From assembly GCA_964545545.1 (NCBI GenBank), contig CAZJGK010000001.1, positions 35,375 to 99,374 on the forward strand: a stretch of DNA of 64,000 nucleotides. The letters run 5' to 3'. The notes beneath the pieces are model-generated. The model had not been told where the DNA came from and searched no databases. It saw only the letters and a list, made by a program, of their open reading frames with translations. This DNA is from an uncultured Fibrobacteraceae bacterium. Lineage in GTDB: Bacteria > Krumholzibacteriota > Krumholzibacteriia > LZORAL124-64-63. Every line of letters begins with the position of its first letter. Position 1 is the stretch's first letter. This document shows, one piece after another, positions 23,374 through 49,393 of the stretch. The translations under genes were made by a program, and so were the position numbers.

Positions 23374-24411
23374 ATGACCGAATTCCGCAGCGGCCAGCCC
23401 GCCCCTGAAGCCCACCGAGCCCTGAAATCCTCCCTGCAAACCATGGCCAAGGCCAAGCGGTGCGCCGTGCTCTGGTTCGGGGACATCCTTGAGCGCAAAC
23501 TCTACCGGGAGCTCGGCTACAGTTCGATCAACCAGTACGCCAGGCAGGAGCTGGGGTTTTCCTCCAGCCGGACAGGCGACTTCCTGAACATCTGCCGCAA
23601 GTTGAAGGAGTTGCCAAAGGTGAGGGAAGAGGTGGCTTCAGGGCGCCTGGGCTACACGGCGGCGCGGGTGTTGGTGACGGTGGCGGATCAGGGCAACGAA
23701 GGGGCATGGCTGAAGGTGGCGCAGCAGGTTCCCCGGCGGGAACTGGAGCTGGCCGTGAAACGGGCCAAAAAGGAGGCGGTCGACAGCAGATCGGGGCAGA
23801 CCTCATTGATACCGAGGAAAGCAAGCCGGCCGGCCGCCGTCGTTCCCGTTCGCCTGAGCCTGGAATTGTCGCCGACCCAGTTCGCCCGCTACGAATCTCT
23901 CTGGGCGCAGATCCGCAAAACCGGCGGAGTTTCGGCCGACAAGGGAGAAGCCCTCCTGGAAATCATGGCCTCGTTCCTGGGCCGAAGTTCCCCCCGGGGG
24001 GATCCTCCCCGGGCCGCCAAAGCGCCGGTACAAATCCATATTCACCAGTGTCCGGACTGCGCCAAGGCCTCCGTGCAAACAGGTAAGGGCGAACTGGCCA
24101 TGGGCAATGCCGAACGGGACCGCGCCCTGTGCGATGCCATGATCAGCCGGGAACACGGGCGCAACCGATCCGCCATTCCCCCGGCCACCCGCCGTGGGGT
24201 TCTGGCCCGCGATCGGCACCGATGTCAGAATTCCGGTTGTGGCCACACGCAGTTCCTGGAGGTGCACCACAGGATTCCGCGATCCCGGGGGGGATCAAAT
24301 GATCCGGGCAATCTCCTGACATTGTGCTCTGCATGCCATCAGCTGTTGCACGAACAGGTGTTGCAGGGGATCGACGCAGGGCCGCTGGCGAAGGTGGGTT
24401 CGGGGCCGTAA
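23374..24411 (+). CDS. DUF222-HNH endonuclease-domain protein
   Basis: HNH motif LEVHHRIPRSRGGSNDPGNLLTLCSACH. The N-terminal region resembles the DUF222 family of actinobacterial 13E12-repeat HNH proteins. AAGGGAG RBS. It is preceded by about 450 bp of AT-rich sequence. Confidence 0.85.
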   Translation: MTEFRSGQPAPEAHRALKSSLQTMAKAKRCAVLWFGDILERKLYRELGYSSINQYARQELGFSSSRTGDFLNICRKLKELPKVREEVASGRLGYTAARVLVTVADQGNEGAWLKVAQQVPRRELELAVKRAKKEAVDSRSGQTSLIPRKASRPAAVVPVRLSLELSPTQFARYESLWAQIRKTGGVSADKGEALLEIMASFLGRSSPRGDPPRAAKAPVQIHIHQCPDCAKASVQTGKGELAMGNAERDRALCDAMISREHGRNRSAIPPATRRGVLARDRHRCQNSGCGHTQFLEVHHRIPRSRGGSNDPGNLLTLCSACHQLLHEQVLQGIDAGPLAKVGSGP

Positions 24412-25570: not shown

Positions 25571-26026
25571 TCAGGTTTCCCGACGCAGCATCAAGAGATG
25601 ATCGATGCCGCACTCGCTGAAAACTTCTCCTTCCCTGATGAAACCGAACTCGTTGTAGAATTCCTCAAGATAGACCTGGGCATGGAGCTTGAACCCGCGG
25701 GCTCCGCGCAATCGCGCCTGGTCCAGCAGGAACTGCACAATCTGCCGGGCAATACCGCGGCCGCGCCAGCGGGGCCTGACGGCGATGCGCTCCAGTTTCG
25801 CCCAACCGTCCGGCAACATCCGCAAACGCCCCGCGGCCACCGGCTGGCCCTCGACTTCTCCCAGGACATGGACGGCCTCCTGTTCGTAGCCGTCGATCTC
25901 CCCGGCCCAGTCCACGCCCTGTTCCTCGATGAAGACGATGCCCCGCACGACCATCACCTTCAGGATGTCCTGTTCGCTGGTGGCCAGGTGAATTTCCGCC
26001 GGCGCTTTGTCGCCCGTTGGTATCAT
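25571..26026 (-). CDS. GNAT-family N-acetyltransferase
   Basis: Internal start MIPTGDKAP with AGGAGG upstream. GNAT motif RPRWRGRGIARQIVQFLLDQARLRGARGFKLHAQ. Confidence 0.75.
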   Translation of the reverse strand: MIPTGDKAPAEIHLATSEQDILKVMVVRGIVFIEEQGVDWAGEIDGYEQEAVHVLGEVEGQPVAAGRLRMLPDGWAKLERIAVRPRWRGRGIARQIVQFLLDQARLRGARGFKLHAQVYLEEFYNEFGFIREGEVFSECGIDHLLMLRRET

Positions 26027-26087
26027 GCTACAGTTAACCTCCTGCTCATTAGGCAATGATAACGATCCGGGGAGTGAAAGGCACCTT

Positions 26088-27248
26088 ATGTCCCTCATCG
26101 AATTCAAAAAGATCCAGCCGGGGCTCCATGTTTTCGCCTGGAAACTCGGCTCGGTGGGCCTGGTGTGGGGCCCCCGCGGTATCCGCCGGGTTGAACTGGG
26201 AGGACATGATTGCAACCCGGTCACCGCCCGGCTGGTATCCCATTTCCCGGACCTTCCTCCGCTCCAGAGGGCCCCCGCCCCCGTGGCGGCCTTGGTGGGG
26301 CGCCTGAAAAGTCTGGCTGCCGGCAAAGCGGACCAGCTGCTGGATGTGCCGGTGGATCTGGACGGATGCTCGGCGTTCTCCCGGGCCGTTTACAGCGCCC
26401 TGCGCAAAATCGGTCCCGGCAAGGTCACGACCTACGGTGAGCTGGCGGCCATGGCCGGCCGGCCGGGCGCCGCCCGCGCCGTGGGCCGCATCATGGGCGC
26501 CAACCCCGTGCCCCTGATCGTGCCCTGCCACCGTTGCCTGGGCAGGGATGGCTCCCTCACCGGGTTTTCCAGCACGGGCGGCATCGAATTGAAGGCCCGC
26601 CTGCTGCACTTCGAGGGTTACGCCCGCAACCCGGAGCACGCCCGGGGCATCGCCCATCTGCGGCGGCGTGACCGCATCCTGCGTCCGGTCATCGATGCCT
26701 TCGGCCCCTACCTCGCTGTTCCCGACAAACCCGGGCCGCCCTACGACACGCTGGTCAGCGCCATCGTCCATCAGCAATTGTCCCTCAAGGCCGGGCGCAC
26801 CATCGCCGGTCGCGTGCGCGATCTCACGCCCGGACCGCGATTCCCCACTCCGCAACAGATGCTGGCCCTGGATCCGCAGAAGCTGCGCGCCGCGGGCCTC
26901 TCGGGCCAGAAGGCCGGTTATGTGCGGGATCTGGCCGCGCGCGTCGGTGACGGACGGCTGAACCTGCGCTCCCTGAACCGCCTGAGCGATGAGGAGGTGA
27001 TCGCCACCCTGACCACCGTCAAGGGCATCGGCGTGTGGTCGGCGCACATGCATATGATTTTCCAGATGGGGCGTCTGGACGTGTTTCCGGTGGGGGATCT
27101 GGGGGTGAAAACCGCCGCCGCTCGGCTTTACGGTCTGGGTGAAAACCCGACCGCCCGGCAACTGGAGCAGGTGGCCGAAACCTGGCGCCCCTTCCGCAGC
27201 CTGGGCGCGTGGTACCTGTGGCGGTCCCTGGAAGCGGGGGGAATGTAG
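26088..27248 (+). CDS. Bifunctional methylated-DNA-protein-cysteine methyltransferase (MGMT/Ogt) fused to a DNA-3-methyladenine glycosylase II (AlkA-like, HhH-GPD)
   Basis: N-terminal half carries PCHRC (VPCHRCLGRDGSLTGFSSTGGIELKARLL). C-terminal half has the HhH-GPD helix-hairpin-helix (TLTTVKGIGVWSAHMHMIFQMGRLDVFPVGDLGV). I place the start at the internal ATG MSLIEFKK. Confidence 0.8.
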   Translation: MSLIEFKKIQPGLHVFAWKLGSVGLVWGPRGIRRVELGGHDCNPVTARLVSHFPDLPPLQRAPAPVAALVGRLKSLAAGKADQLLDVPVDLDGCSAFSRAVYSALRKIGPGKVTTYGELAAMAGRPGAARAVGRIMGANPVPLIVPCHRCLGRDGSLTGFSSTGGIELKARLLHFEGYARNPEHARGIAHLRRRDRILRPVIDAFGPYLAVPDKPGPPYDTLVSAIVHQQLSLKAGRTIAGRVRDLTPGPRFPTPQQMLALDPQKLRAAGLSGQKAGYVRDLAARVGDGRLNLRSLNRLSDEEVIATLTTVKGIGVWSAHMHMIFQMGRLDVFPVGDLGVKTAAARLYGLGENPTARQLEQVAETWRPFRSLGAWYLWRSLEAGGM

Positions 27249-31994: not shown

Positions 31995-33257
31995 ATGGAA
32001 ATGACAACAGCGCGAACTTTCCTGACGATGGGGACCTTGACCCTGGCCATGCTTGCCCTCCCTGTTGTGAGCGCCGATGCCGGCCAAGTCGTCCAGGTCC
32101 ACGACCAAACCGTCGTGCGCAACCTTAAACCCGCCTTGCCGGCGGTGGACCTGAAGCTGGAAGAACTCTGGCGCCGCGGAGGCGAAGGCGACGACGTGAT
32201 GATCGGCCTGCCGGTCGAGGCGCTGGCCGACGAAGCGGGGCGCGTCTATCTGGCCGACCAGCAACTCTGCCGGGTTTTCGTCTTCGGTCCCGATGGCGAG
32301 TTGACCAAGCCCCTCAGCCGCGAAGGAGACGGCCCCGGCGAGGTTCGCAACCCCGTGGACCTCGTGCACTTGCCTGACGGCACCTTCGGCATTGCCGAGT
32401 TCTTTCCCGGCAAAATCATCAAAGTGACCGCCGACGATCTTCCGGCCGGGGAGATCACGGTCGATGTGAGCGGCGGACAGACCGGCGGCTTCACCATGCA
32501 GACCATGGTCGAAGCCTGGGGCAATCATTTGCTGGTGGCGGGATCGCGCTCCCTGCCCCAGGACAAGTTTACCGAACGCACCCATTTCCTGGCCGCCATC
32601 GACCAGCAGGGCCGGCAGACCGTGCGCTACATGGAGCAGGTATCCCGCATCCAGCGGCCCCACACCGTGGTGCACGAAACCGATTTCCTGCCCGCCTTCC
32701 CCCTGGCCAGCGCCTTGGGGCCGGATGGCCGGGTTTTCACACCCCACGACCGCGAACACTACGCGGTGAACGTCTTCAATGCCGACGGTACCCTGGACCG
32801 GATCATCGAACGACCGGATTTCCAGCCCTGGAAACGCAACAAGCGCGACCTGCGCCGCATCAGGGCTCTGTTCCAATCCTGGGCCGGCGCCAACCCCGAA
32901 ACATGGCCCCGGTTCGACCTCAAAGACACCGAACGCGCCATCAACACCCTTCACATCGACGGCCGGGGCCGATTGTGGGTGCAGCACAGCCGCAGCAATC
33001 GTGACCAGAAGGACGGCGTCTTCCTCAGCCTCGATCTCTACGACGACCAGGGCAACTGGCAGCGCGAAGTGCGCCTGATCTGCGAAGGCAATCCGGTCAG
33101 TGACGGGGTGCGCTTTCTGCGGGACGGGCGGATTCTGCTGATCAGGGGGTTTGTCACGGCGCGGCTGGCCTGCCTCGGGTCCGGCACGGCCACCCTTGGC
33201 GAGGATGATACCGATTCCATCGAGATCATCTGTTACAAGTTGCCCGATTTCAGTTAA
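31995..33257 (+). CDS. Secreted beta-propeller-like hypothetical protein
   Basis: Signal peptide MEMTTARTFLTMGTLTLAMLALPVVSADA. Repeated VYLAD.../GPDG... segments suggest NHL/SGL-like blades. No catalytic motif recognised. Confidence 0.55.
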   Translation: MEMTTARTFLTMGTLTLAMLALPVVSADAGQVVQVHDQTVVRNLKPALPAVDLKLEELWRRGGEGDDVMIGLPVEALADEAGRVYLADQQLCRVFVFGPDGELTKPLSREGDGPGEVRNPVDLVHLPDGTFGIAEFFPGKIIKVTADDLPAGEITVDVSGGQTGGFTMQTMVEAWGNHLLVAGSRSLPQDKFTERTHFLAAIDQQGRQTVRYMEQVSRIQRPHTVVHETDFLPAFPLASALGPDGRVFTPHDREHYAVNVFNADGTLDRIIERPDFQPWKRNKRDLRRIRALFQSWAGANPETWPRFDLKDTERAINTLHIDGRGRLWVQHSRSNRDQKDGVFLSLDLYDDQGNWQREVRLICEGNPVSDGVRFLRDGRILLIRGFVTARLACLGSGTATLGEDDTDSIEIICYKLPDFS

Positions 33258-34651
33258 TCGTGGGGCAGACTGCCCCGGGCCGAGCGGAAGTACGCGAACG
33301 GTGTCTCGAACAGGAAGTTCGATACGCGCGAAGTGTAGATGTCCGCGTGGCGCTCCACGAAATCGGCCAGATAGCTCTTGTCGTTCCCCGCGCGCATCAG
33401 GGATCCCCAGTGGACATTGCCGGTCTGGGCCGAGGCGCGGGCCAGCGGAGCGAGGACCTCGTCCAGCGCCTGCAGCTCGGCGCGCAGTTTTTCCAGGCGA
33501 GGCTTCAGGGATCCTGCCCCCTGCCCCCGTTGCAGGCGCAACCGCATCTGCGCGTAGCGCCGTTCCAGGATTCCTTTGCGACTCATGAGGGTCTCCAGCT
33601 CGGCGGCCTGGTCCCGGAAGGCGTAGGCTGCCTTCAGGTCGTTTTCCAGTTCCCGGACGACCAGCGCCGTGCGCCAGCGCATGGTGCTCTTGGTCGCGTG
33701 CACATCCCCGAAGAAATGATCACCCACATAGAGGATACGTTCGCCGGTCAGTCCCAGGGCGGCTTCCACCGTCGCGGCGTTGCCGCCGAAATAGATCGCG
33801 CCCGCCTCCAGTTCCCCGCTGACGGGTTTCAACAGCCCCTCGTCGTCCACGACTTCCAGGATCGGGCTGCGGCTGGTGAAGAAGTCGGGCTTGCGGGCCG
33901 AGACGATGATCAGGTCGAACAGGTCCCGCCAGGTCATGCCCTCGGGCAGATGAGGGTCGAAAGCGTAAGTCATCAACTGGCGGCTGTAGGCCCAGTCCGA
34001 ATTGGTGATCAGCATCAGCTTCTTGCCGGCCTGCTTCTGGTCCAGCAGGGCTTCGGCGGTCTGTGGATCGCGGTCCACATAGCGATCCAGGTCGGCCAGG
34101 ATCTCCGCCTTGAGCAAGCCCTCGGAATGGGCGCGGTCGATACTGGCGCGGACACGCTTGTAGAGATCGCCGTAGTCCCCCAACATGGGCAATTGCCCGG
34201 CATCCCACAATTCCACCAGCTGGGCGAAGAGGCAGGCTTCGCTCAGCGAGAACAGCGTGCTCAGAAAAATGAACCGCGCTTCGTGATGGTCCACCACGAT
34301 GCGGGAGTAGAGTTTTCTCTGCGCCTCGAAATCCATGGGTGCCGTGCCGTGGAAGGCGCTCTTGACGAAGCCGAAGCGGTTGACCTTCAGGAGATTCCCC
34401 GTTTCCAGATCGACGATCAACCCCTGGATCATCATCTCGGGATCAAAGCTCAGACCCTCGACCGGCCAGCCTTCCCGCAGCAACTGCTCCCGGGCGTGAC
34501 GGAAGGCCACGGCCTCCCACTCGACCACCTTGTACTGGATCAGCGTGTAATCCATGTCGTAGCCGATGGCTCCCAGCGAGCGCATGTTCAGCGTGCGATT
34601 GCAGAAGATTCCACGCTGGGGCGCGCCTTTGGGAAAAAGAAAGTCCGACAT
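33254..34651 (-). CDS. HAD-superfamily 5'-nucleotidase, cytosolic cN-II-like (HAD-IG)
   Basis: DMDYTL (DxDxT) motif near the N-terminus. Length about 465 aa. Conserved KLMLITNS and GDHFFGDV (motifs III/IV). Confidence 0.7.
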   Translation of the reverse strand: MSDFLFPKGAPQRGIFCNRTLNMRSLGAIGYDMDYTLIQYKVVEWEAVAFRHAREQLLREGWPVEGLSFDPEMMIQGLIVDLETGNLLKVNRFGFVKSAFHGTAPMDFEAQRKLYSRIVVDHHEARFIFLSTLFSLSEACLFAQLVELWDAGQLPMLGDYGDLYKRVRASIDRAHSEGLLKAEILADLDRYVDRDPQTAEALLDQKQAGKKLMLITNSDWAYSRQLMTYAFDPHLPEGMTWRDLFDLIIVSARKPDFFTSRSPILEVVDDEGLLKPVSGELEAGAIYFGGNAATVEAALGLTGERILYVGDHFFGDVHATKSTMRWRTALVVRELENDLKAAYAFRDQAAELETLMSRKGILERRYAQMRLRLQRGQGAGSLKPRLEKLRAELQALDEVLAPLARASAQTGNVHWGSLMRAGNDKSYLADFVERHADIYTSRVSNFLFETPFAYFRSARGSLPHD

Positions 34652-34714
34652 GGTATGCGTTTCTCCACGGGTTTGGGTACGCACCCAATATTACATGGAA
34701 AAGGGGATGCCCGC

Positions 34715-36400
34715 CTAGATGGAAACCGGGATTTGCAGACTTTCGATGGCCTGGATGGCCTGCTTGAGGATGATCGGCTTGCCCAGATGCAGGTCCATGC
34801 CCGCCTCCAGGCACCGCCGGGTACTGTCGCTGTCAGCGTCGGCGGTCAGGGCGATGATCGGAATCTGCGCCAGGTGGTCAGTGCGGTCGCGCAGCAATCG
34901 CGTGGCCTCCAGCCCATCCATGACCGGCATGCGGACATCCATGAAGACCAGATCGAAAGCGCCGTGTTCCAGTTTCGTGATGGCCTCTTGGCCATTGACC
35001 GCAAACTCCGGCGTGATGCCGACCTTGTGCAGCAATTTGCCCATGACCACCTGGTTAACCGCATTGTCCTCGGCTACCAGCACCTTCAGGTCGAAACGCG
35101 GCAAAGTCCCGGGCTGAGCGGCCTCTATCTCTGCCACGACCGCCGTCGGCATGGCGAAGGTCACGGAAAAAGTCGAGCCGACGCCAACGGTGGATTGGAC
35201 CACAATGTCCCCGCCCATTTTCCGGGCCAGGTGGTGACTGATAGCCAGGCCCAGCCCCGTGCCGCCGAAGTTGCGCGTCGTGGACTCGTTCACCTGCTCG
35301 AATTGTTCAAAAATGGCCGCCAGGCGATCTTCCGGGATCCCGATACCCGTATCTTCTATGCGCAGAGTGATCATGGCCTGTTCACCGGGTTCTTCGGAAA
35401 CCTCAACGTTCAGGGAAACGCCCCCGGCCTCGGTGAACTTCACCGCGTTGGAGACAAGGTTCAGCGCGATCTGCCGCACCCTGACCGGGTCACCCAGAAA
35501 TCCGCGGGGTGCATCGGCGGGATACCGGAAATCAAGCGAGAGTCCCCGGGCCACCGCCGACGGCCGCAGGATCTGCTCCACGTCCTCCAGTACGGTATGC
35601 AGATCGAAGGGAATCGCTTCAATGGCCATCTTGCCCGAGGTAATCTTCGAGAAATCGAGGATGTCATTGACGATGTCGAGCAAGGAGGATGCCGATCGCC
35701 GCAGGATCTCGAGGTCGCGGCGCCCCTCGGAGTCGATATTTGAATCCTCAATGACCTGGGCCATACCCAGCACGCCATTCAGGGGAGTGCGGATCTCATG
35801 ACTCATGTTGGCCAGGAACACACCCTTGGCCTTCTCCGCGGCCTGGGAGTTCACGAGCTCCGCCTGCAGCTTGCTGTTCAACGCTCCGAGCCGGTTCAGG
35901 ACCGTGAGGAAGAACGAAGGCAGCATCAGGATTCCCCACCAGAGCCCCATCCCCATGAGCAGATTCTCCTGCCAATAGTGGTTGAACCTGAGAACCAAGC
36001 CGAATTCCACGAAGCCCATCGTGGCCGACGCCAGCAGCGTTCTTTTCCCGAACCGAATACCATAACCGACGATCACCCAGAGAAATACCGGATAGAAGAA
36101 CGACCCGAATCGGGCCGCGAAATAGAAAGCCAGGGTTGTGGTCGTGATGTCCATGAACATGGTCACATAGATGCGGGACGGCCGGCCACCCGGCTTCCTG
36201 GTCAGGTACTGATGCCAGAATACGGAAAAAATAAAATGAACCAGAATGATGGAAAGTCCATAAGTCAGGGATCGACTTAGATGCCCGTCACGAATAAGAT
36301 TGAAGGAACCCAATAAAACGAATGTGGTGGAGGATATGCTCAGCCGGCTGATGGACTGGTTTCGCTCCTCACGTCTGCGCAATTCCTGGGATTGGTTCAT
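34715..36400 (-). CDS. Hybrid sensor histidine kinase / response regulator (membrane sensor, HisKA, HATPase_c, REC)
   Basis: Five or six N-terminal TM helices. H-box ANMSHEIRTPLNGVLGM. G-boxes GGTGLGLAISHHLARKMGG. REC domain KVLVAEDNAVNQ...DLVFMDVRMPVMDG. GAGGA RBS. Confidence 0.85.
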   Translation of the reverse strand: MNQSQELRRREERNQSISRLSISSTTFVLLGSFNLIRDGHLSRSLTYGLSIILVHFIFSVFWHQYLTRKPGGRPSRIYVTMFMDITTTTLAFYFAARFGSFFYPVFLWVIVGYGIRFGKRTLLASATMGFVEFGLVLRFNHYWQENLLMGMGLWWGILMLPSFFLTVLNRLGALNSKLQAELVNSQAAEKAKGVFLANMSHEIRTPLNGVLGMAQVIEDSNIDSEGRRDLEILRRSASSLLDIVNDILDFSKITSGKMAIEAIPFDLHTVLEDVEQILRPSAVARGLSLDFRYPADAPRGFLGDPVRVRQIALNLVSNAVKFTEAGGVSLNVEVSEEPGEQAMITLRIEDTGIGIPEDRLAAIFEQFEQVNESTTRNFGGTGLGLAISHHLARKMGGDIVVQSTVGVGSTFSVTFAMPTAVVAEIEAAQPGTLPRFDLKVLVAEDNAVNQVVMGKLLHKVGITPEFAVNGQEAITKLEHGAFDLVFMDVRMPVMDGLEATRLLRDRTDHLAQIPIIALTADADSDSTRRCLEAGMDLHLGKPIILKQAIQAIESLQIPVSI

Positions 36401-36537
36401 ACGGTTTCCTCTTTAACCCCCTCCCTCCGATATCCATAGGTGTTTCGGCGGTTTGTTCCCGGACTTTAGGGATGTCATCCCGTTGCGCGCCGTCACGGCC
36501 CTTTCCCAAGGCTGTCTCGGCCATCCTGCACCCGGTT

Positions 36538-36550
36538 CCCCCCGGGGGGG
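36538..36550. repeat. C6G7 self-complementary tract (CCCCCCGGGGGGG) in a 313-bp divergent intergenic region. An AT-rich inverted repeat TTATTccgcttAATAA lies at 36571-36586.
   Basis: Read directly from the sequence. Confidence 0.5.
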
Positions 36551-36713
36551 TCTCAATGAGCAATCGGCGATTATTCCGCTTAATAATCCTGGATGACCAC
36601 CGGCCTGCTGACTACCTTGGCCCCGGCCACTGAAGCCCCCGCGGAACCTCCGCCGGGTGCTGCGGCCGGAGTCGCCGACAGACCGTCAAGGTCGCAAGGC
36701 GCGGAATACGATC

Positions 36714-37913
36714 ATGAACATCATCGTCTTCAACTGCGGCAGTTCCTCCCTGACTTACAGAGTTTATAGTTCCGAGAATTGTGACGACCTGCGGACTCTG
36801 CTCAAGGGCAAAGCCCACCGGGTGGGCGTCAAGGGGACCGAGCCGTCTTTTATCCAGCATGAGCATGAAGGAACCATCGACAGGCGCGAAGTCCAGATCC
36901 CGGATCACGCGACGGCGGCCAACCTGATCCTCGACAAGGTTGGCGAGTTGGGGATCGATCTGCATTGCATTGGCCATCGCTGGGGCCACGGCCTCGGCCA
37001 ATTCACCACCACATTTCTGAGCACGTCGGTGCTGGAGCAGATGAAACTGACCGTGCCCTTGCTCCCGATCCATCATCCGGCCATGTTGGATGTGATCTCG
37101 ACCTGCCGACGACGATTTCCCCACCTGCCGGATTATGTGACGACCGACAACGCCTTCCACGCCGGCCTGCCGGCCTGCGCGTACACATATGCGATCCCCA
37201 GGGACATGGCTGCCGAGTACAAGTTTCGCAAGTATGGTTTCCACGGACTTTCCTACCAGTATGTGGTGGCCGCCACCAGCGAGTACCTGGAGCTTCCCCT
37301 GGAACGACTCAAGATAATTGCCTGCCATCTCGGCACAGGCGGGTCCAGCGTGGCCGCGGTGCGGGACGGCTCGTCCATTGACACCTCGATGGGATTTTCC
37401 GGGCTGTCGGGCCTGCTCATGAGCACCCGCGCCGGTGACATCGACCCCATGCTTGCGATCTACCTGATGGTGGTCTTCGATCTGAGTTCAGGCGAGGTCA
37501 TCGACCTTTTGAACAAGAAAAGCGGCCTGTTGGGTATGTCGGGCTTTTCCAGCGACATTAGGGACATCATCAAACTCATCGCCAGCGATGAAGAAGCGCG
37601 CTTGGCCTTCGATATGTACGTGCATCGGGTTAAGAAATACATCGGGAGTTACTGTGCTGCTCTCGGTGGATTCGATGTTCTGGTCTTTACCGACGATATC
37701 GGCCAGCACAACTGGCTGGTGCGGGAAAAAGTCTGCCGGGATATGGCGTGGTGCGGCCTGGAGCTTGACGAGGATGCGAATCGGGAAACGGCCACCGAGG
37801 GAATCCGGCAGGTTAGTACGCCACAGTCCAGGGTTTGTGTGTTGGTCGTTCCGACTGATGAGGAGCGCATCATTTGCCTGGAAGGCCTCAAGCTGATGGG
37901 GGGTCAACCATGA
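36714..37913 (+). CDS. Acetate/propionate kinase-family protein (ASKHA). Near-canonical but lacks the GGIGEN motif.
   Basis: FNCGSSS, IGHRWGHG, DNAFH, KYGFHGLSY, IACHLGTGGS, IDTSMG and STRAGDIDP all match AckA motifs. VFTGGIGEN is replaced by VFTDDIGQH. Confidence 0.85.
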   Translation: MNIIVFNCGSSSLTYRVYSSENCDDLRTLLKGKAHRVGVKGTEPSFIQHEHEGTIDRREVQIPDHATAANLILDKVGELGIDLHCIGHRWGHGLGQFTTTFLSTSVLEQMKLTVPLLPIHHPAMLDVISTCRRRFPHLPDYVTTDNAFHAGLPACAYTYAIPRDMAAEYKFRKYGFHGLSYQYVVAATSEYLELPLERLKIIACHLGTGGSSVAAVRDGSSIDTSMGFSGLSGLLMSTRAGDIDPMLAIYLMVVFDLSSGEVIDLLNKKSGLLGMSGFSSDIRDIIKLIASDEEARLAFDMYVHRVKKYIGSYCAALGGFDVLVFTDDIGQHNWLVREKVCRDMAWCGLELDEDANRETATEGIRQVSTPQSRVCVLVVPTDEERIICLEGLKLMGGQP

Positions 37914-39001
37914 TCCTGCTGACCCAGGCCACGCCCGAGGCCTTGAAATGCTGTCAGGTGCAGGACGGCGAACTGCTGAAAACGCTGCACAAGGATGGCG
38001 GCGCCGGCTTGGGTCCGATCTTGTCGGAGCTGGTGGAGGGCCAGAGCATTGATGCTGTCGCGCATTTCGTAGGCCACGGCGGCGCGGAATTCGACCGGTC
38101 CGTTACCCGGCTTCTACCCGGCGATCTCTCGCCGCTGGAACGATGCATCCGGTACCAACCCGAGTGCAACGCCCGGACTTATGAGACGGCGCGCTATTTC
38201 GCCGCGCAGTTGCCGGGAAGCCCACAGTTCGTCTGCTGTGATACGGGTTGCTTCAGTTCGTTGCCGGGTGTGGCGAGCAACTACGGGATTCCCCGGGAAC
38301 TGCGCCAACGCGGTCTGCGACGATTCGGAGGCTATGGTCTCTGCCACGAGCGGGCCTGGGAGCGTACCGTATCCCTTCGCGGCGGCCGGGTTCGGCGGCT
38401 TGTCAGTGTCTACCTTGGCAACACCACCAACGTGGCCGCCATGCGGGACGGCCTCCCCGTGGAGACAACGATGGGCTTTACATCCGTTGAAGGGATTCCT
38501 TCCGACCACGCCTGCGGCGATATCGACCCCACCATCCTGGACCTGCTCTTCCCCAAGGGAATAAGCATCTCCGAAATCACCGGGATCCTTACGACCCGCA
38601 GTGGCCTTACCGGTTTGATGGGGAGGGACACCAGCTTCCGGGACTTGATGCGAGGTAGGGGCCAAGACAGCGACGGCGGTTATGCGGAAGTCTGGGACCT
38701 TCTGCTCTACCATGTTCAAAAGAATATCGGGGCGTTCGTCGCCTCCCTGGGCGGAGTGGACGCCATCGCGTTTTCGAGCGAATATATCCAGGAGTGCGCG
38801 CCGTTCATCGACGAACTTGCCGGGCGCCTGGCGTTTCTGGGTTTGAAGCATACCGATGTGCGGGGGGACGAGAGCGACATCCGCGACATTTCCGCAGCGG
38901 GTTCGCGTGTCGGTGTCGTCTGCCTGCATTACGACAAATGGAAGATCATGGCGGAATTGGTCATGGCTTCGATTAACCGGGAGGTGCAAGATGTCCAATG
39001 A
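37910..39001 (+). CDS. Degenerate acetate-kinase-family paralogue (probable pseudo-kinase)
   Basis: Its ATG overlaps the upstream TGA (ATGA). It aligns with AckA along its length (HFVGHGG, CDTGCF, GYGLCH, YLGNTTN, TTMGF, ACGDIDP, IAFSSEYIQE), but the N-terminal NxGSSS loop, R91, H180, R241 and the GGIGEN residues are all substituted. Confidence 0.7.
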   Translation: MILLTQATPEALKCCQVQDGELLKTLHKDGGAGLGPILSELVEGQSIDAVAHFVGHGGAEFDRSVTRLLPGDLSPLERCIRYQPECNARTYETARYFAAQLPGSPQFVCCDTGCFSSLPGVASNYGIPRELRQRGLRRFGGYGLCHERAWERTVSLRGGRVRRLVSVYLGNTTNVAAMRDGLPVETTMGFTSVEGIPSDHACGDIDPTILDLLFPKGISISEITGILTTRSGLTGLMGRDTSFRDLMRGRGQDSDGGYAEVWDLLLYHVQKNIGAFVASLGGVDAIAFSSEYIQECAPFIDELAGRLAFLGLKHTDVRGDESDIRDISAAGSRVGVVCLHYDKWKIMAELVMASINREVQDVQ

Positions 39002-39785
39002 CAAAAAGTTCTTGGTCGATGTCGGCCTGGGAGGCCTGGTTTTTCCGATCACGGTCCTCTCCAAGGGGAAGCCCGAGGGGCAGCAGACCGTGGCCACCAT
39101 TTCCATCAGTGCCCGGATCATGCATGAGTTCGAGGCCTTCTGGATCGACAGGTTCATCCAGATCCTGCACAAGCACCGCGACAACATCGGCCAGACATCG
39201 TTCAAAACAAACATCAAGGATTATGCGACCGCCCTGGGTGCCGAAGCGGTCAGCATCGAATTCAGCTACCCGTTTTTTATCGAGAAAACTACGCCCGTCT
39301 CCGGAGAGAAATGCTTGGTCAAGTACAACTGCGTTCTTTCCACCAAGCTTCCCACGCTTGAGAAGGTGCCGCCGGTCTTCCTACGCATTGATGTTCCGGT
39401 GCTGACGACCTACCCCCAGAGTCAATCCGGCCTGCCGTACGGTCTGTTCGCCCAGCAGAGCGTTGTGGCGCTGGAGACCCACTCCTTTACCGATCTCTTC
39501 GTGGAAGATCTGGTCGAGATCGTTGAGTCACATGCGCTTTCCCCTGTCTATTCGTTCCTTACCGATGAGGACCAGGCGTTCCTCATCAAGAAGCTGCACA
39601 CGGAATCCCAGACAAGCGTTATGATGCTCGATGGCGTCCGGCAGAAAATGGCGAGCAACAAGGACATTGACTGGTTCTCCGTGCGTTGCGCCAATTTCGG
39701 CATGTTGCATTCCTACAACACCACCATCGGAGCCGAGAAGAGCCTCTGGATACCATACAGCGGCGGAAGTGATGACGGCATCTAG
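38991..39785 (+). CDS. FolE2/MptA-family (GCHY-1, DUF198) T-fold protein lacking the conserved CPC(S)KE metal-site cysteines
   Basis: GGGAGG RBS. It overlaps the ack2 end by 11 nt. FPITV...TVA...SIEFSYPFFIEKTTPVSG resembles the FolE2 signature (SFPWFFERK.P). Where FolE2 has LCPCSKE, this protein has TTYPQSQS. Confidence 0.6.
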   Translation: MSNDKKFLVDVGLGGLVFPITVLSKGKPEGQQTVATISISARIMHEFEAFWIDRFIQILHKHRDNIGQTSFKTNIKDYATALGAEAVSIEFSYPFFIEKTTPVSGEKCLVKYNCVLSTKLPTLEKVPPVFLRIDVPVLTTYPQSQSGLPYGLFAQQSVVALETHSFTDLFVEDLVEIVESHALSPVYSFLTDEDQAFLIKKLHTESQTSVMMLDGVRQKMASNKDIDWFSVRCANFGMLHSYNTTIGAEKSLWIPYSGGSDDGI

Positions 39786-39840
39786 CCCGGTGGCATGATC
39801 CTGGGCGTTCAGCGTGTGGACCGCGGGAACTTAGGCGGAA

Positions 39841-41265
39841 CTATCGGGACCACTCGGCCGTGATCACCTTGATCATGTTGGTCGGCATCTTCTGGGCGAA
39901 CGGCACCCCTGCGGTCAGCACCACCGGATCCCCGGGGCTGACAAAGCCACCCTGCAAGGCCCTGTCCAGGGCGACCTGCTCAAGTTTTTCGACGGTTTGG
40001 GCCAGATCGATTTCCACCGGCACCGCGCCGAAGGTCAGGGCCATGCGCAGGGCCGTTTCACGTTCAGGCGTCAGGGACAACACAACCTGCCGCGGACGAT
40101 AACGGGCCACCCGCAGGGTGGTGTTGCCGCTGCGGGTGCAGGTCAAGATGGCGGCGGCTCCGATATCCTCGGCCATCTTCACGGCCGCATGAGCCACGGC
40201 GTCGCCGAAACTGAGTTTCTGGGACCCCGCGAACTTCTCGGTCCAACCTTCGTAATCCAGCTGCCGCTCCGTATCGGCGGCGACCCTGGACATCACCTGC
40301 ACCGCCTCGACCGGATAGGCGCCTATGGCCGTTTCCTCGCTCAACATGATGGCGTCGGTGCCGTCGTAGATGGCGTTGGCGACATCGGTTACCTCGGCGC
40401 GCGTCGGCCGCGGGCTCTCCACCATGGACTTGAGCATCTGGGTGGCCGTGATCACCGGTTTGGCCGCGGCGTTGGACCGGGCGATGATCATCTTCTGGGC
40501 GCGAGGCACCTGCTCCAGGGGAATCTCCACCCCCAGATCGCCCCTGGCCACCATGATTCCGTCGGCCACGACGATGATCTCCTCGATGTTCTCCAGGGCC
40601 TCGAACTTCTCGATCTTGGCGATGAGCGGTGTGTCCTTGCCCGCGGCCTGGATGACGTGTTTGGTCGTTTCGATATCGTGGGCCGTGCGCACGAAGGACA
40701 AGGCCACGAAATCCACGCCCTGCTGCAGGCCGAACTCCAGGTCGGCACGATCCTTGGCCGAGAGAATCGGCGCGTTGAGCGTACGGCCGGGCAGGTTGAT
40801 GCCCTTGTGGGAGCCGAGCATCCCGCCGGTGACCACGCGGCAGTTGATGTCCGTTGTGCTGGCCGACTCGACCTGCAGTTCCATGGCTCCGTCCGCCAGC
40901 AGGATGGCGTCTCCGGCACGCACGCTGCGCGGCAGGTCGTGATAGGTGAGGCCGACTTCCTCCCCGCTGCCGGGAACTTCCCGATTGGTCAGCACGAACC
41001 GGGCCCCCTCCTTGAGCTCGATCTCGCCGGGGGCCATAGCCCCGGTGCGGATCTTGGGACCGGCCAGATCCTGCAGGATGGCCACGGGCGCCCCCATTTT
41101 CCGGGACACTTCCCTGATGTCCTTGATGAGCTCAGCGTGCTCGGCGTGGGTGCCGTGGGAAAAATTCAGGCGGCATACATTCATGCCCGCCTCGATCAGT
41201 CGGGCCAGTATTTCCGGATCCCGGCTGGCCGGTCCGATGGTGCAGATGATCTTGGTCTTGATCAT
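39841..41265 (-). CDS. pyk: Pyruvate kinase
   Basis: MIKTKIICTIGPAS...NFSHG...; MVARGDLGVEIP; 474 aa. Confidence 0.9.
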   Translation of the reverse strand: MIKTKIICTIGPASRDPEILARLIEAGMNVCRLNFSHGTHAEHAELIKDIREVSRKMGAPVAILQDLAGPKIRTGAMAPGEIELKEGARFVLTNREVPGSGEEVGLTYHDLPRSVRAGDAILLADGAMELQVESASTTDINCRVVTGGMLGSHKGINLPGRTLNAPILSAKDRADLEFGLQQGVDFVALSFVRTAHDIETTKHVIQAAGKDTPLIAKIEKFEALENIEEIIVVADGIMVARGDLGVEIPLEQVPRAQKMIIARSNAAAKPVITATQMLKSMVESPRPTRAEVTDVANAIYDGTDAIMLSEETAIGAYPVEAVQVMSRVAADTERQLDYEGWTEKFAGSQKLSFGDAVAHAAVKMAEDIGAAAILTCTRSGNTTLRVARYRPRQVVLSLTPERETALRMALTFGAVPVEIDLAQTVEKLEQVALDRALQGGFVSPGDPVVLTAGVPFAQKMPTNMIKVITAEWSR

Positions 41266-47719: not shown

Positions 47720-49393
47720 CTATTTGATTATGATGCATCGCTTCCACTCTGTCCGGCCATGGGCCTCCAGCGAATAGAGATAGATGCCGCTGGGAAGTCC
47801 CTGGGCATCCAGGGTCACGTGCTGCATCTCCTTGGCTGAAGCCTCGCTGGCGACCGTGCGCAGGCAGCGGCCGCGGACATCGTACAAACGCAGGGTCACT
47901 TCGCCGGCCTCGGCAACCCGGTAGGAAATCCGGGTTGAATTCCGGAAGGGATTGGGCGCGTTCTGGTCCAGTTCGATCATCTGTTCGGAGACCTTCGGTC
48001 CATCCGGTACGGCGGAAACATCGATGAAACCCGCTCTCTGCAGGCCGGCCCGGATATCCGCGTTCCCCATCATCCGGTCCCAGATGCCCCCGTTGAGATA
48101 GTTCTCGATCATGATGACGATGGGACCCTCATCGATCCCCAGGTAGTCCGAGCCCCACCAGAACTGGGTGAGGTTGAACGCATCCTTGAAACCATACTTC
48201 CCCCAGAGCATGGAGCCGTAGTTGTCGTACATGTTATGCAGAGCGGGCAGGACGATCTCGGGCGCAAAGGCGATGGAACCCGCCGCCGCGGTGGGGGTGA
48301 TCGTCCCGTTGTCGTTCTGGGCCGGGGGGGCGCCGTGGGCCAGGTAGCCGCCGGGATCGTCCGAGGCCGTCAGGCCCCACAGGTCCGCGCCGTAGCCGGC
48401 CCAGCCACTGGGATTGGCGATGCAGTATTCCCGGGCGGCAATGGTCGCCCGGCGGGAATTCTCGAAATAATCGATGCCGTGCAGACGCATATACGCGTCC
48501 CTCAGGTCACGAAAATCAATCCAGCAGTGGGAATACTGATGGCCGAACAGCGGCGGAAAGTTCACATAGATCTGGCCGTATTGCAGGCTCCAGTTGTAAC
48601 CGCTCGTCCAGTAGGCCCAGGTATAATCGGGGACCGGATGGGTGGGCGAACCCAGGGCCAACAGGTACAGGACCATGGCCTCGTTGTACCCCACCCAGGT
48701 GCCGTAACCGCTGAAACCCGTGTTCGGCTTCCAGCCCATGCGGATGCCGTTGCCGCCGTTGCGAACGAACTCCCAGTCCACGCGGTAGTACAGGGAATCC
48801 GAAAGGGCCCGCACCTCGACCTCGCCGGGATCCTCGCCGGTGAAGTACTGCTTGGCGTCGATGACACCGGCCATGAGCAGGGCCGTGTCGATGGTTGACA
48901 ATTCCGAGCTCCAGGTTCTCAGGCCGGAATTGATATCCAGGAAATGGTAGAACAGGCCCTTGTAGCCGTTCGTATTGTATTCGGTGTCGCCCTGGGGTCC
49001 GTTCCACAGGGTCTGCATGCCCAGCAGGATGCGGTCGCGTCCCTCGCTGCGGGATATCCAGCCGTGGTCGATGGCGATGCAGATGGCGGTGATGCCGAAA
49101 CCCTGGGCTGCGATGCTGCAGGCGGACCCGGGCTGGCTGCGGTCCCGGATCAACCCATTGACCGGATTGGCCTCGTCCCAGAAGTACAGGAAGCCCGTGC
49201 GCTGCAGGCTGTCCAGCAAGGCCTCGTCCGTCAGGGATTTCAGGGCGGGAACTGTCAGGCTACGCTGCGAATTCCCGGCGAGGACAGGGCCGGCCGACGA
49301 CCCGATCAGGAACAGGGCGACCAGCAGTCCCAGCCTGATCCTGCTCCCCGATAGACCGTGCATCCCACCATGATATGTCGTTTGCTTGATCAC
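47720..49393 (-). CDS. (alpha/alpha)6-type glycoside hydrolase, glucoamylase-like (GH15/GH144-related, tentative), with a T9SS C-terminal sorting domain
   Basis: GTG start with GAGGAG upstream, then a signal peptide. FLYFWDEANPVNG resembles the glucoamylase general-acid region LWEEVNG. The C-terminus ends GIYLYSLEAHGRTEWKRCIIIK. The family assignment is from memory only. Confidence 0.7.
   Translation of the reverse strand: MIKQTTYHGGMHGLSGSRIRLGLLVALFLIGSSAGPVLAGNSQRSLTVPALKSLTDEALLDSLQRTGFLYFWDEANPVNGLIRDRSQPGSACSIAAQGFGITAICIAIDHGWISRSEGRDRILLGMQTLWNGPQGDTEYNTNGYKGLFYHFLDINSGLRTWSSELSTIDTALLMAGVIDAKQYFTGEDPGEVEVRALSDSLYYRVDWEFVRNGGNGIRMGWKPNTGFSGYGTWVGYNEAMVLYLLALGSPTHPVPDYTWAYWTSGYNWSLQYGQIYVNFPPLFGHQYSHCWIDFRDLRDAYMRLHGIDYFENSRRATIAAREYCIANPSGWAGYGADLWGLTASDDPGGYLAHGAPPAQNDNGTITPTAAAGSIAFAPEIVLPALHNMYDNYGSMLWGKYGFKDAFNLTQFWWGSDYLGIDEGPIVIMIENYLNGGIWDRMMGNADIRAGLQRAGFIDVSAVPDGPKVSEQMIELDQNAPNPFRNSTRISYRVAEAGEVTLRLYDVRGRCLRTVASEASAKEMQHVTLDAQGLPSGIYLYSLEAHGRTEWKRCIIIK

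Follow-up and report, generated by a model that had tools for sequence, protein, structure and literature searches.

Comparative analysis of a 64,000 nt stretch of DNA from an uncultured Fibrobacteraceae bacterium (contig CAZJGK010000001.1; this whole stretch is hereafter the window) suggests that one of its genes, designated here ACK2, codes for a non-catalytic relative of acetate kinase (ACK) that pairs with the product of the gene immediately upstream, ACK1, and forms one side of the kinase dimer, a reading to which we assign a probability of roughly 0.55. ACK2 (363 aa; Pfam and reading of the open reading frame, ORF, with ATG at 37,910 and TGA ending at 39,001) is the middle gene of a block of three on the plus strand whose start and stop codons overlap. 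It is preceded by ACK1 (36,714–37,913; 399 aa), assigned to the acetate kinases of Entamoeba (EhACK) type from Pfam/NCBIfam profiles, its closest PDB match and a tree, and is followed by a gene for a FolE2-like T-fold protein (38,991–39,785; 264 aa), recognized by Pfam GCHY-1 and by alignment. Four observations taken together would place ACK2 on one side of a dimer with ACK1: the retention of the pocket at the dimer interface, the loss of the catalytic residues, the strict adjacency of both genes and their overlapping codons.

The ACK2 protein, for which an identical 363-aa database copy exists (P0001), matches the Pfam profile Acetate_kinase (PF00871) with an E-value of 4.9e-40 (137.8 bits, cut-off 22; profile positions 69–387 of 392), and phmmer aligns it to the M. 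thermophila ACK (1g99) at 4e-36. Conversely, it reaches only 122.4 bits with TIGR00016, below the cut-off of 293.4, and every equivalog model stays far under its own cut-off. For the comparison of residues we used the numbering of 1g99, checked residue by residue in the HMMER alignment, and a MAFFT alignment of 130 sequences comprising 65 non-identical ACK2 sequences, 30 ACK1-type sequences and 35 canonical kinases; counts out of 65 below refer to this set. The first ca. 38 residues of ACK2 cannot be aligned by sequence and ca. 35 residues of the N domain are deleted, so the original prediction, made from the letters of the window, overstated the similarity in claiming an alignment to AckA along the whole length; the claim does hold for the predicted structure, which superposes over the entire chain on known kinases (see below).

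R91, H180, R241 and E384, among other residues, have recognized roles in acetate kinase, and none of these four is found at its position in ACK2. At the N-terminal end, the PHOSPHATE1 motif is degenerate and reads LLTQATPEALKCC in place of VINAGSSSLKYQ (37,916–37,954, + strand, as are all the motifs below; family consensus LLFxPxPPxLRWC). The loop N7–S12, NAGSSS in the reference enzyme, is absent, as had been predicted, and reads QATPEA; it lies between strands 2–7 and 11–18 of the AlphaFold2 model and takes the form (D/E)-P-x-P-P in the family, with S10 and S11 replaced by Pro in 51/65 and 47/65 sequences, respectively, and N7 by Asp or Glu in 52/65. In the sequence AHFVGHGG (38,060–38,083) the HGG is retained and R91 is replaced by Phe53, this position being Leu, Val, Phe or Ile in 57/65 sequences and Arg in five. 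QPECNA stands in place of APLHNP (38,156–38,173), with H123 changed to Cys and N124 retained; the position of H123 is variable in the family and L122 is Glu in 60/65 sequences. CCDTGCF replaces VFDTAFH (38,234–38,254), retaining D148 and T149; here F147 is Cys in 60/65 and H152 is Phe in 64/65 sequences, while D148 is Asp in 54 and Glu in 10 of the 65.

The pattern continues through the second half of the protein. RRFGGYGLCH is found in place of RKYGFHGTSH (38,318–38,347), so that H180 is Tyr142 and F179 is Gly; the position of H180 is Tyr or Phe in the family, with His outside the five commonest residues, and H184 is invariant (65/65). This segment also retains the basic residue at the position of R178 of S. 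typhimurium AckA, which belongs to the interface pocket (see below). PHOSPHATE2 is also degenerate, SVYLGNTTN in place of TCHLGNGSS (38,405–38,431): H208 is Tyr, G212 and S213 are Thr and S214 is Asn, whereas N211 is retained (Asp 28, Asn 26 and Glu 6 of 65), and the motif lacks the extra Gly present in ACK1. DHACGDIDP replaces GTRCGSIDP (38,504–38,530), with R241 changed to Ala201; the position is Gly, Ala or Ser in 62/65 sequences and Arg in one. The adenosine-binding motif is lost, FSSEYIQE standing for FTAGIGEN (38,771–38,794), and its positions are variable through the family. Finally, LHYDKW is found in place of IPTNEE (38,924–38,941), with E384 changed to Lys; this position is Lys or Arg in 48/65 sequences and E385 is Trp in 52/65.

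These catalytic substitutions occur throughout the 65 ACK2 sequences and are not specific to the genome in the window. The earlier identification of R91 (HFVGHGG), H180 (GYGLCH), R241 (ACGDIDP) and the adenosine motif as lost was borne out, and the proposal that every catalytic position is substituted stands for the PHOSPHATE1 loop, R91, H123, H180, R241, GIGEN and E384 but fails for D148, N211 and R285, which ACK2 from the window retains. In the family, the positions of D283, R285 and G331–N335 are unconstrained. Among alignment columns with 80% conservation or more in the canonical kinases, 37 are retained in ACK2, nine have switched to a new residue and 36 are lost; the lost columns are in essence those of the catalytic residues and of the acetate and adenosine pockets. 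A faulty alignment had been named as a possible source of error, yet the HMMER alignment to PDB sequences, the family MAFFT alignment and Foldseek on the model all show the catalytic residues to be absent.

The AlphaFold2 model of ACK2, built on 39 family sequences, has a predicted local distance difference test value (pLDDT) of 90.1 and a predicted template modelling (TM) score of 0.89. Foldseek matches it over the entire chain to solved acetate and propionate kinases (AckA, TdcD) with TM-scores of 0.84–0.87, and the acetate-kinase fold is complete in this model. As obligate dimers, acetate kinases bury ca. 3,000 square angstroms per subunit via domain II, and the interface of AckA from S. 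typhimurium contains a conserved pocket formed by R178, D227, M230, R309, K312 and Y313 (PMC3475010). Five of these six positions are conserved in kind in ACK2, R309 alone being lost: R178 is Arg or Lys in 65/65 sequences (Arg in 61, Lys in 4), D227 is Glu or Asp in 65/65, M230 is hydrophobic, K312 is Lys or Arg in 64/65 and Y313 is Tyr in 40/65. The pocket residues thus look compatible with dimerisation, and their retention alongside the loss of the catalytic set indicates that the interface of ACK2, and not its active site, has been conserved.

From the side of ACK2, the association of both kinase genes is constant. In every locus retrieved via ACK2 itself, that is, in 29 GTDB species genomes from more than 12 phyla and in four metagenome contigs, an ACK1-type gene lies directly upstream of ACK2, and the products of these upstream genes are 48–59% identical to ACK1 from the window, vs. 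33–41% for canonical kinases. The phyla include Sumerlaeota, Myxococcota, Spirochaetota, Bacteroidota, Verrucomicrobiota, Omnitrophota, Fibrobacterota, Acidobacteriota, Planctomycetota, Lentisphaerota, Kiritimatiellia, Chloroflexota, Actinomycetota and Elusimicrobiota; no named cultured organism appeared among the ACK2 homologs in the protein searches. The original prediction had described the frame as intact and translationally coupled to that of the upstream kinase; the ORF is indeed uninterrupted, and the ACK2 ATG (37,910–37,912) and the ACK1 TGA (37,911–37,913) share the sequence ATGA (37,910–37,913, + strand). The stop codon of ACK1 and the start of ACK2 overlap by 4–23 nt in 27 of 31 orthologous loci. 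Sampling of metagenomes from the ACK1 side gave 60 ACK1-type genes with enough downstream sequence, 52 of them with ACK2 directly downstream and eight alone. ACK2 was never found alone in the loci sampled, whereas the ACK1-type gene is alone in these eight loci and in Entamoeba, an asymmetry that fits an ACK2 acting as an accessory subunit dependent on ACK1.

The third gene accompanies the pair in most cases. The FolE2-like gene is directly downstream of ACK2 in 26 of the 29 genomes; elsewhere it is upstream (L016 and the JGI locus L003) or absent (L025 and L031). From the ACK1 side, it was present in 37 of the 45 ACK1–ACK2 pairs with room past ACK2. When the FolE2-like gene was itself used for sampling, we retrieved three full modules, one arrangement of phosphate acetyltransferase (Pta), canonical ACK and FolE2-like genes in a glycolytic cluster, and two solitary genes. 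In the window, the FolE2-like gene overlaps the end of ACK2 by 11 nt and is preceded by a Shine-Dalgarno sequence, GGAGG (38,980–38,984, + strand), located within the 3′ end of ACK2, 6 nt before the start codon.

Clustering of ORFs from 112 loci showed no recurrent neighbor beyond the three genes, except for phosphate acetyltransferase (nine loci) and canonical ACK (ca. 10 loci); because these recur in about a tenth of the loci, the module has a loose link to acetyl-phosphate metabolism. The genes that flank the block in the window, annotated from their ORFs and domains as a hybrid histidine kinase (34,715–36,400, minus strand) and a pyruvate kinase (39,841–41,265, minus strand), are not conserved as neighbors, and a scan of promoters and terminators returned nothing exceeding chance. 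We also considered an anti-phage defense system, but PADLOC gave no match for any of the three proteins.

In a metagenome-assembled genome of Sumerlaeota (locus L014, 6,001–7,872; CAZSMK010000021.1), ACK2 runs in frame into the FolE2-like gene as one ORF of 623 aa. There is no stop codon between the genes, the FolE2-like gene still has its GGAGG and ATG, now internal to the ORF, and this is the sole case in ca. 110 loci. The fusion could be genuine or an assembly error; if genuine, it hints at a physical association of both proteins.

The partner gene was described in the original prediction as active-looking, and ACK1 does keep all of the catalytic residues, although the enzyme is of Entamoeba type and not an ordinary AckA. 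ACK1 scores 349 bits with Pfam PF00871 and 351.9 bits with TIGR00016, over the cut-off of 293.4, and its closest PDB match is the ACK from E. histolytica (4h0o, 320 bits). Its motifs are FNCGSSS (36,729–36,749), GHRWGHG (36,972–36,992), GFHGLSY (37,236–37,256), CHLGTGGSS with an extra Gly (37,323–37,349), STRAGDIDP (37,422–37,448), FTDDIGQHN (37,686–37,712) and PTDEE (37,851–37,865), all on the plus strand, and N7, S10–12, R91, H123, D148, H180, R241 and E384 are retained in 29–30 of the 30 ACK1-type sequences. From its residues, ACK1 is thus predicted to be a catalytically complete acetate kinase of EhACK type. The work of Dang and Ingram-Smith describes kinases from Entamoeba and a few Anaerolineaceae with an extra Gly in PHOSPHATE2 and an Asp in the ADENOSINE motif, leaves open the phosphoryl donor of the bacterial EhACK-like kinases, and treats the pyrophosphate (PPi)-dependent kinase from Entamoeba as the sole known one of its kind (PMC5517563). 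ACK1 shows both EhACK features, HLGTGGSS and FTDDIG.

ACK1, the solo ACK1-type proteins and EhACK form a single clade in 100 of 100 neighbor-joining (NJ) bootstraps. All the 80 metagenome loci that were kept are of ACK1 type, with HLGTGG in 78 and FTDD in 76 of them, and EhACK-like genes are therefore widespread in bacterial metagenomes. In two loci (L013, 4,806–5,998, and L168, 1,790–3,010) the ACK1-type gene is broken up into a pair of ORFs, with the ACK2 and FolE2-like genes intact; these splits may be assembly indels or a genuine inactivation of the live kinase.

A word-indexed protein search with ACK2 returned ca. 42 clusters with 33–44% identity and lengths of 335–373 aa, the next scores being those of ordinary 400-aa kinases, and an exhaustive profile search extended the family to ca. 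115 representatives (clusters at 50% identity) above the canonical kinases, which begin at ca. 233 bits. The family has its own motifs: MxLLFxPxPPxLRWC, GYxLxHGG, FLPExN, CDTAFF, RRYGGYGLCHQW, SVYLG(D/N)xxN, CGDIDPT, GGVDAxVF and YDKW. None of the 31 ACK2 ORFs taken from genome and metagenome loci is disrupted; apart from the in-frame fusion they have 331–377 aa, and no frameshifted ortholog, which the original prediction had named as a refutation, was found. The ratio of nonsynonymous to synonymous substitution rates (dN/dS), calculated from genome pairs with unsaturated dS (0.23–0.42), was 0.21–0.35 for ACK2, compared to 0.10–0.17 for ACK1 and 0.10–0.32 for the FolE2-like gene in the same pairs; mean pairwise identity over shared genome pairs was 39, 55, and 60%, respectively, and ACK2 evolves at 1.3–2.8 times the rate of ACK1. 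Selection on ACK2 is purifying but relaxed, and this is the least constrained of the three proteins.

ACK2 is an old, long-branch family. A recent tandem duplication of ACK1 was rejected as its origin, as the extra Gly of ACK1 is missing from ACK2, which groups with the ACK1/EhACK clade in just 12 of 100 NJ bootstraps, a placement subject to long-branch effects. The G+C content of the segment with the three-gene block (36,001–40,000) is 0.575–0.592, vs. ca. 0.60–0.69 across most of the window; this lower value and the occurrence of the module in more than 12 phyla are consistent with lateral acquisition.

The FolE2-like protein scores 99 bits with Pfam GCHY-1 and 77.7 bits with the NCBIfam FolE2 equivalog, vs. 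a cut-off of 215. The FolE2 enzyme from B. pseudomallei has Cys154, His166, and Glu208 as metal ligands and Glu250 as the base (PMC11573665). Alignment to 8g6c and 2r5r shows these residues replaced: Cys154 by Tyr and Cys156 by Gln in TTYPQSQ (39,405–39,425), His166 by Phe in GLFAQQS (39,441–39,461), Glu208 by Gln in LTDEDQ (39,558–39,575), and Glu250 by Gly in NFGMLHSY (39,693–39,716), all on the plus strand. The motifs with these replacements vary little or not at all among the 27–46 family members compared. Its model has a pLDDT of 83 and matches GTP cyclohydrolase IB with TM-scores of 0.8–0.88 in Foldseek. The subfamily is large (616 hits), with 60–70% identity and its own invariant His, Cys, Tyr and Lys. 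Since both ACK2 and the FolE2-like protein lack the active-site residues of their families, two of the three proteins of the module are "dead" for the chemistry of their families.

In locus L165 (1,593–5,786), which lacks ACK2, the FolE2-like gene follows Pta and a canonical AckA (with HLGNGAS and FTAGIGEN) and precedes PGI, PMI, PGM and PFK, an arrangement that ties the T-fold protein to acetate kinases more generally. In loci L166 and L167, the FolE2-like gene of the dead subfamily is solitary.

Several observations weigh against ACK2 being the non-catalytic half of a dimer with ACK1. The retained interface would suit an ACK2 homodimer equally well as a heterodimer, and a search for a surface of ACK1 specific to heterodimers gave nothing clear, with only six positions distinguishing partnered from solo ACK1-type sequences. 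ACK1-type kinases work without ACK2 in Entamoeba and occur without it in 8/60 loci, and ACK2 is therefore not required for the activity of ACK1 as such. The monophyletic ACK2 family is not sister to ACK1, as seen from the bootstrap values above, so that a simple tandem duplication does not explain the pairing. Additionally, many positions of the former active site have been conserved anew, with E122, C147, F152, G179, Y180, C183, Y208, N214, K384 and W385 as characteristic residues, a pattern that fits a new site of binding or catalysis better than it fits a passive scaffold.

This last point leads to the main alternative, that ACK2 acquired a new function, its remodelled inter-domain cleft binding a ligand or catalyzing a reaction, possibly with the FolE2-like protein, which we consider possible but clearly less probable than the pairing with ACK1. 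E122, C147, F152, H184 and W385, with the counts given above, are among the best-conserved residues of the family, together with G179 (56/65), N214 (59/65), C242 (62/65) and E234 (65/65); the acidic residues that replace N7 and the retention of D148 in 54/65 sequences would also suit a working cleft. A partnership in such a function would agree with the in-frame fusion in L014 and with a FolE2-like protein that is itself strongly conserved, with its own invariant residues, and that occurs also beside a canonical Pta–AckA pair and alone. Nevertheless, ACK2 has no recognizable catalytic or cofactor motif, its nucleotide-binding positions are unconstrained, its rate relative to ACK1 is higher than is usual for enzymes that depend on a precise active site, and it was never found without ACK1 in the loci sampled. 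Four cysteines near the old active site suggested a metal or Fe-S site, but they are not jointly conserved: C147 (60/65) and C242 (62/65) are, whereas C183 is present in 43/65 sequences and the N-terminal Cys in 36/65, with L014 and L031 lacking some of the four, and such a site is unsupported.

That ACK2 is still a working kinase of acetate or another short-chain acid, operating through different residues, is very improbable. Pfam does assign it to PF00871, and D148, the N211 position (Asp, Asn or Glu), H184, HGG and GDIDP remain; but the PHOSPHATE1 loop, R91, H180, R241, E384, G331, I332 and N335 are replaced family-wide, and residues at these positions serve phosphoryl transfer or the binding of substrate, Mg or nucleotide in the M. 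thermophila enzyme, roles described in part in PMC5517563. The score of 122 bits with TIGR00016, against a cut-off of 293, points the same way. Finally, a decaying pseudogene or an annotation artefact would agree with the faster divergence of ACK2 relative to its neighbors, but it is contradicted by the 31 intact ORFs, the dN/dS values, the invariant motifs, the ca. 115 clusters spread over more than 12 phyla and the confident model, and we give it practically no credit; the original prediction that this is not a decaying gene thus agrees with the data, including the dN/dS check that it had suggested.

If ACK2 is indeed the non-catalytic protomer, it would most likely replace one subunit of the obligate dimer to yield an ACK1–ACK2 heterodimer with a single active site. 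ACK1 would probably move phosphate between acetyl phosphate and inorganic phosphate (Pi)/PPi, or another non-adenylate acceptor, and not ADP/ATP, while the contribution of ACK2 would be the dimer interface together with a remodelled cleft that is blind to nucleotides and serves as a structural or regulatory module; ACK2 would probably also dock the FolE2-like T-fold protein. We infer the regulatory or scaffolding role of ACK2 from the gene order, the overlapping codons and the retained interface pocket; the heterodimerisation, the lack of residual activity in ACK2, the PPi/Pi specificity of ACK1 and the role of the FolE2-like protein are likewise proposed from comparative data. A more daring version, which we hold as doubtful, is that the three proteins form a single heteromeric machine, composed of a live kinase, a dead kinase and a dead T-fold scaffold, that converts acetyl phosphate and Pi to acetate and PPi, or uses some unknown non-adenylate acceptor, under allosteric control via the dead subunits; this could give many uncultured phyla of anaerobes a dedicated source of PPi for PPi-dependent glycolysis, and could be the bacterial ancestor from which the enzyme of Entamoeba derives.

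Acetate kinase is a textbook enzyme, and we found no description in the open-access literature of a conserved dead paralog of it or of a cluster of acetate kinase and FolE2-like genes. A 2017 paper dealt with a handful of bacterial relatives of EhACK whose donor was open (PMC5517563); the relatives described here come from more than 12 phyla and mostly have a dead kinase as partner along with a dead FolE2-like protein. Because the bacterial kinase is mostly accompanied by these two proteins, an assay of the kinase alone may miss its real form. Should the module indeed convert acetyl phosphate to yield PPi, this would bear on the origin of PPi for PPi-dependent glycolysis. Where databases give these proteins a name, the names used include "acetate kinase" for ACK2 and "GTP cyclohydrolase FolE2" or MptA for the FolE2-like protein, and neither activity is supported by the residues.

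Other genes of the window deserve mention. A 476-aa protein (33,254–34,684, minus strand) belongs to the 5′-nucleotidase family PF05761 (475 bits), best known from the eukaryotic cytosolic cN-II type, and a putative glucoamylase (47,720–49,393, minus strand) has at its C-terminus a sorting domain for type IX secretion (Por_Secre_tail), which suggests that the window derives from a member of the Fibrobacterota-Chlorobiota-Bacteroidota (FCB) group. Two further ORFs, at 26,007–27,248 and 23,374–24,411, code for a fusion of a methylguanine-DNA methyltransferase DNA-binding domain with a HhH-GPD glycosylase and for a separate protein with DUF222 and an HNH endonuclease.

Among known systems, ACK2 shares with AckA, TdcD, PduW and the M. 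thermophila ACK (PDB 1G99/1TUY) the two-domain ASKHA fold and the Pfam family, as well as HGG, N124, D148–T149, G181, H184, LG(N/D), GFT-x-EG, CGDIDP, GG-x-DA-x-VF and the residues of the interface pocket. Unlike these canonical kinases, it lacks PHOSPHATE1, R91, H180, R241, the ADENOSINE motif and E384, has ca. 35 residues deleted from the N domain, stays under the TIGR00016 cut-off and is encoded behind another kinase gene in every locus retrieved with it. EhACK (PDB 4H0O) and the EhACK-like kinases from Anaerolineaceae are the family of ACK1 and not that of ACK2, and neither a downstream dead paralog nor a FolE2-like gene is mentioned in the section of PMC5517563 that was consulted. ACK2 differs from EhACK in lacking the extra Gly and the catalytic residues, and the Entamoeba kinase stands alone. 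In turn, the FolE2-like protein has the bimodular T-fold and the GCHY-1 domain of GTP cyclohydrolase IB (FolE2; PDB 3D2O, 8G6C, 2R5R), whereas its metal ligands and base are changed to Tyr, Phe, Gln and Gly, its score is under the equivalog cut-off, and its gene is linked to acetate kinase genes instead of folate or queuosine genes.

Two other members of the ASKHA superfamily offer parallels to the role proposed for ACK2. MecR2 (PDB 4IJA), a methicillin-resistance factor of the ROK family according to its PDB entry, is a distant Foldseek match (TM-score 0.43) that is not known to have kinase activity; as proposed for ACK2, it reuses the ASKHA fold non-catalytically as a regulator, although it is remotely related, acts on a repressor and has no paralogous enzyme as partner. 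The architecture suggested for ACK2–ACK1 is more like that of TsaB (YeaZ)–TsaD, in which a dead ASKHA paralog heterodimerises with an active one; that pair belongs to another ASKHA branch, dedicated to t6A synthesis, and its complex has been shown experimentally, whereas the complex of ACK2 with ACK1 is predicted from comparative evidence.

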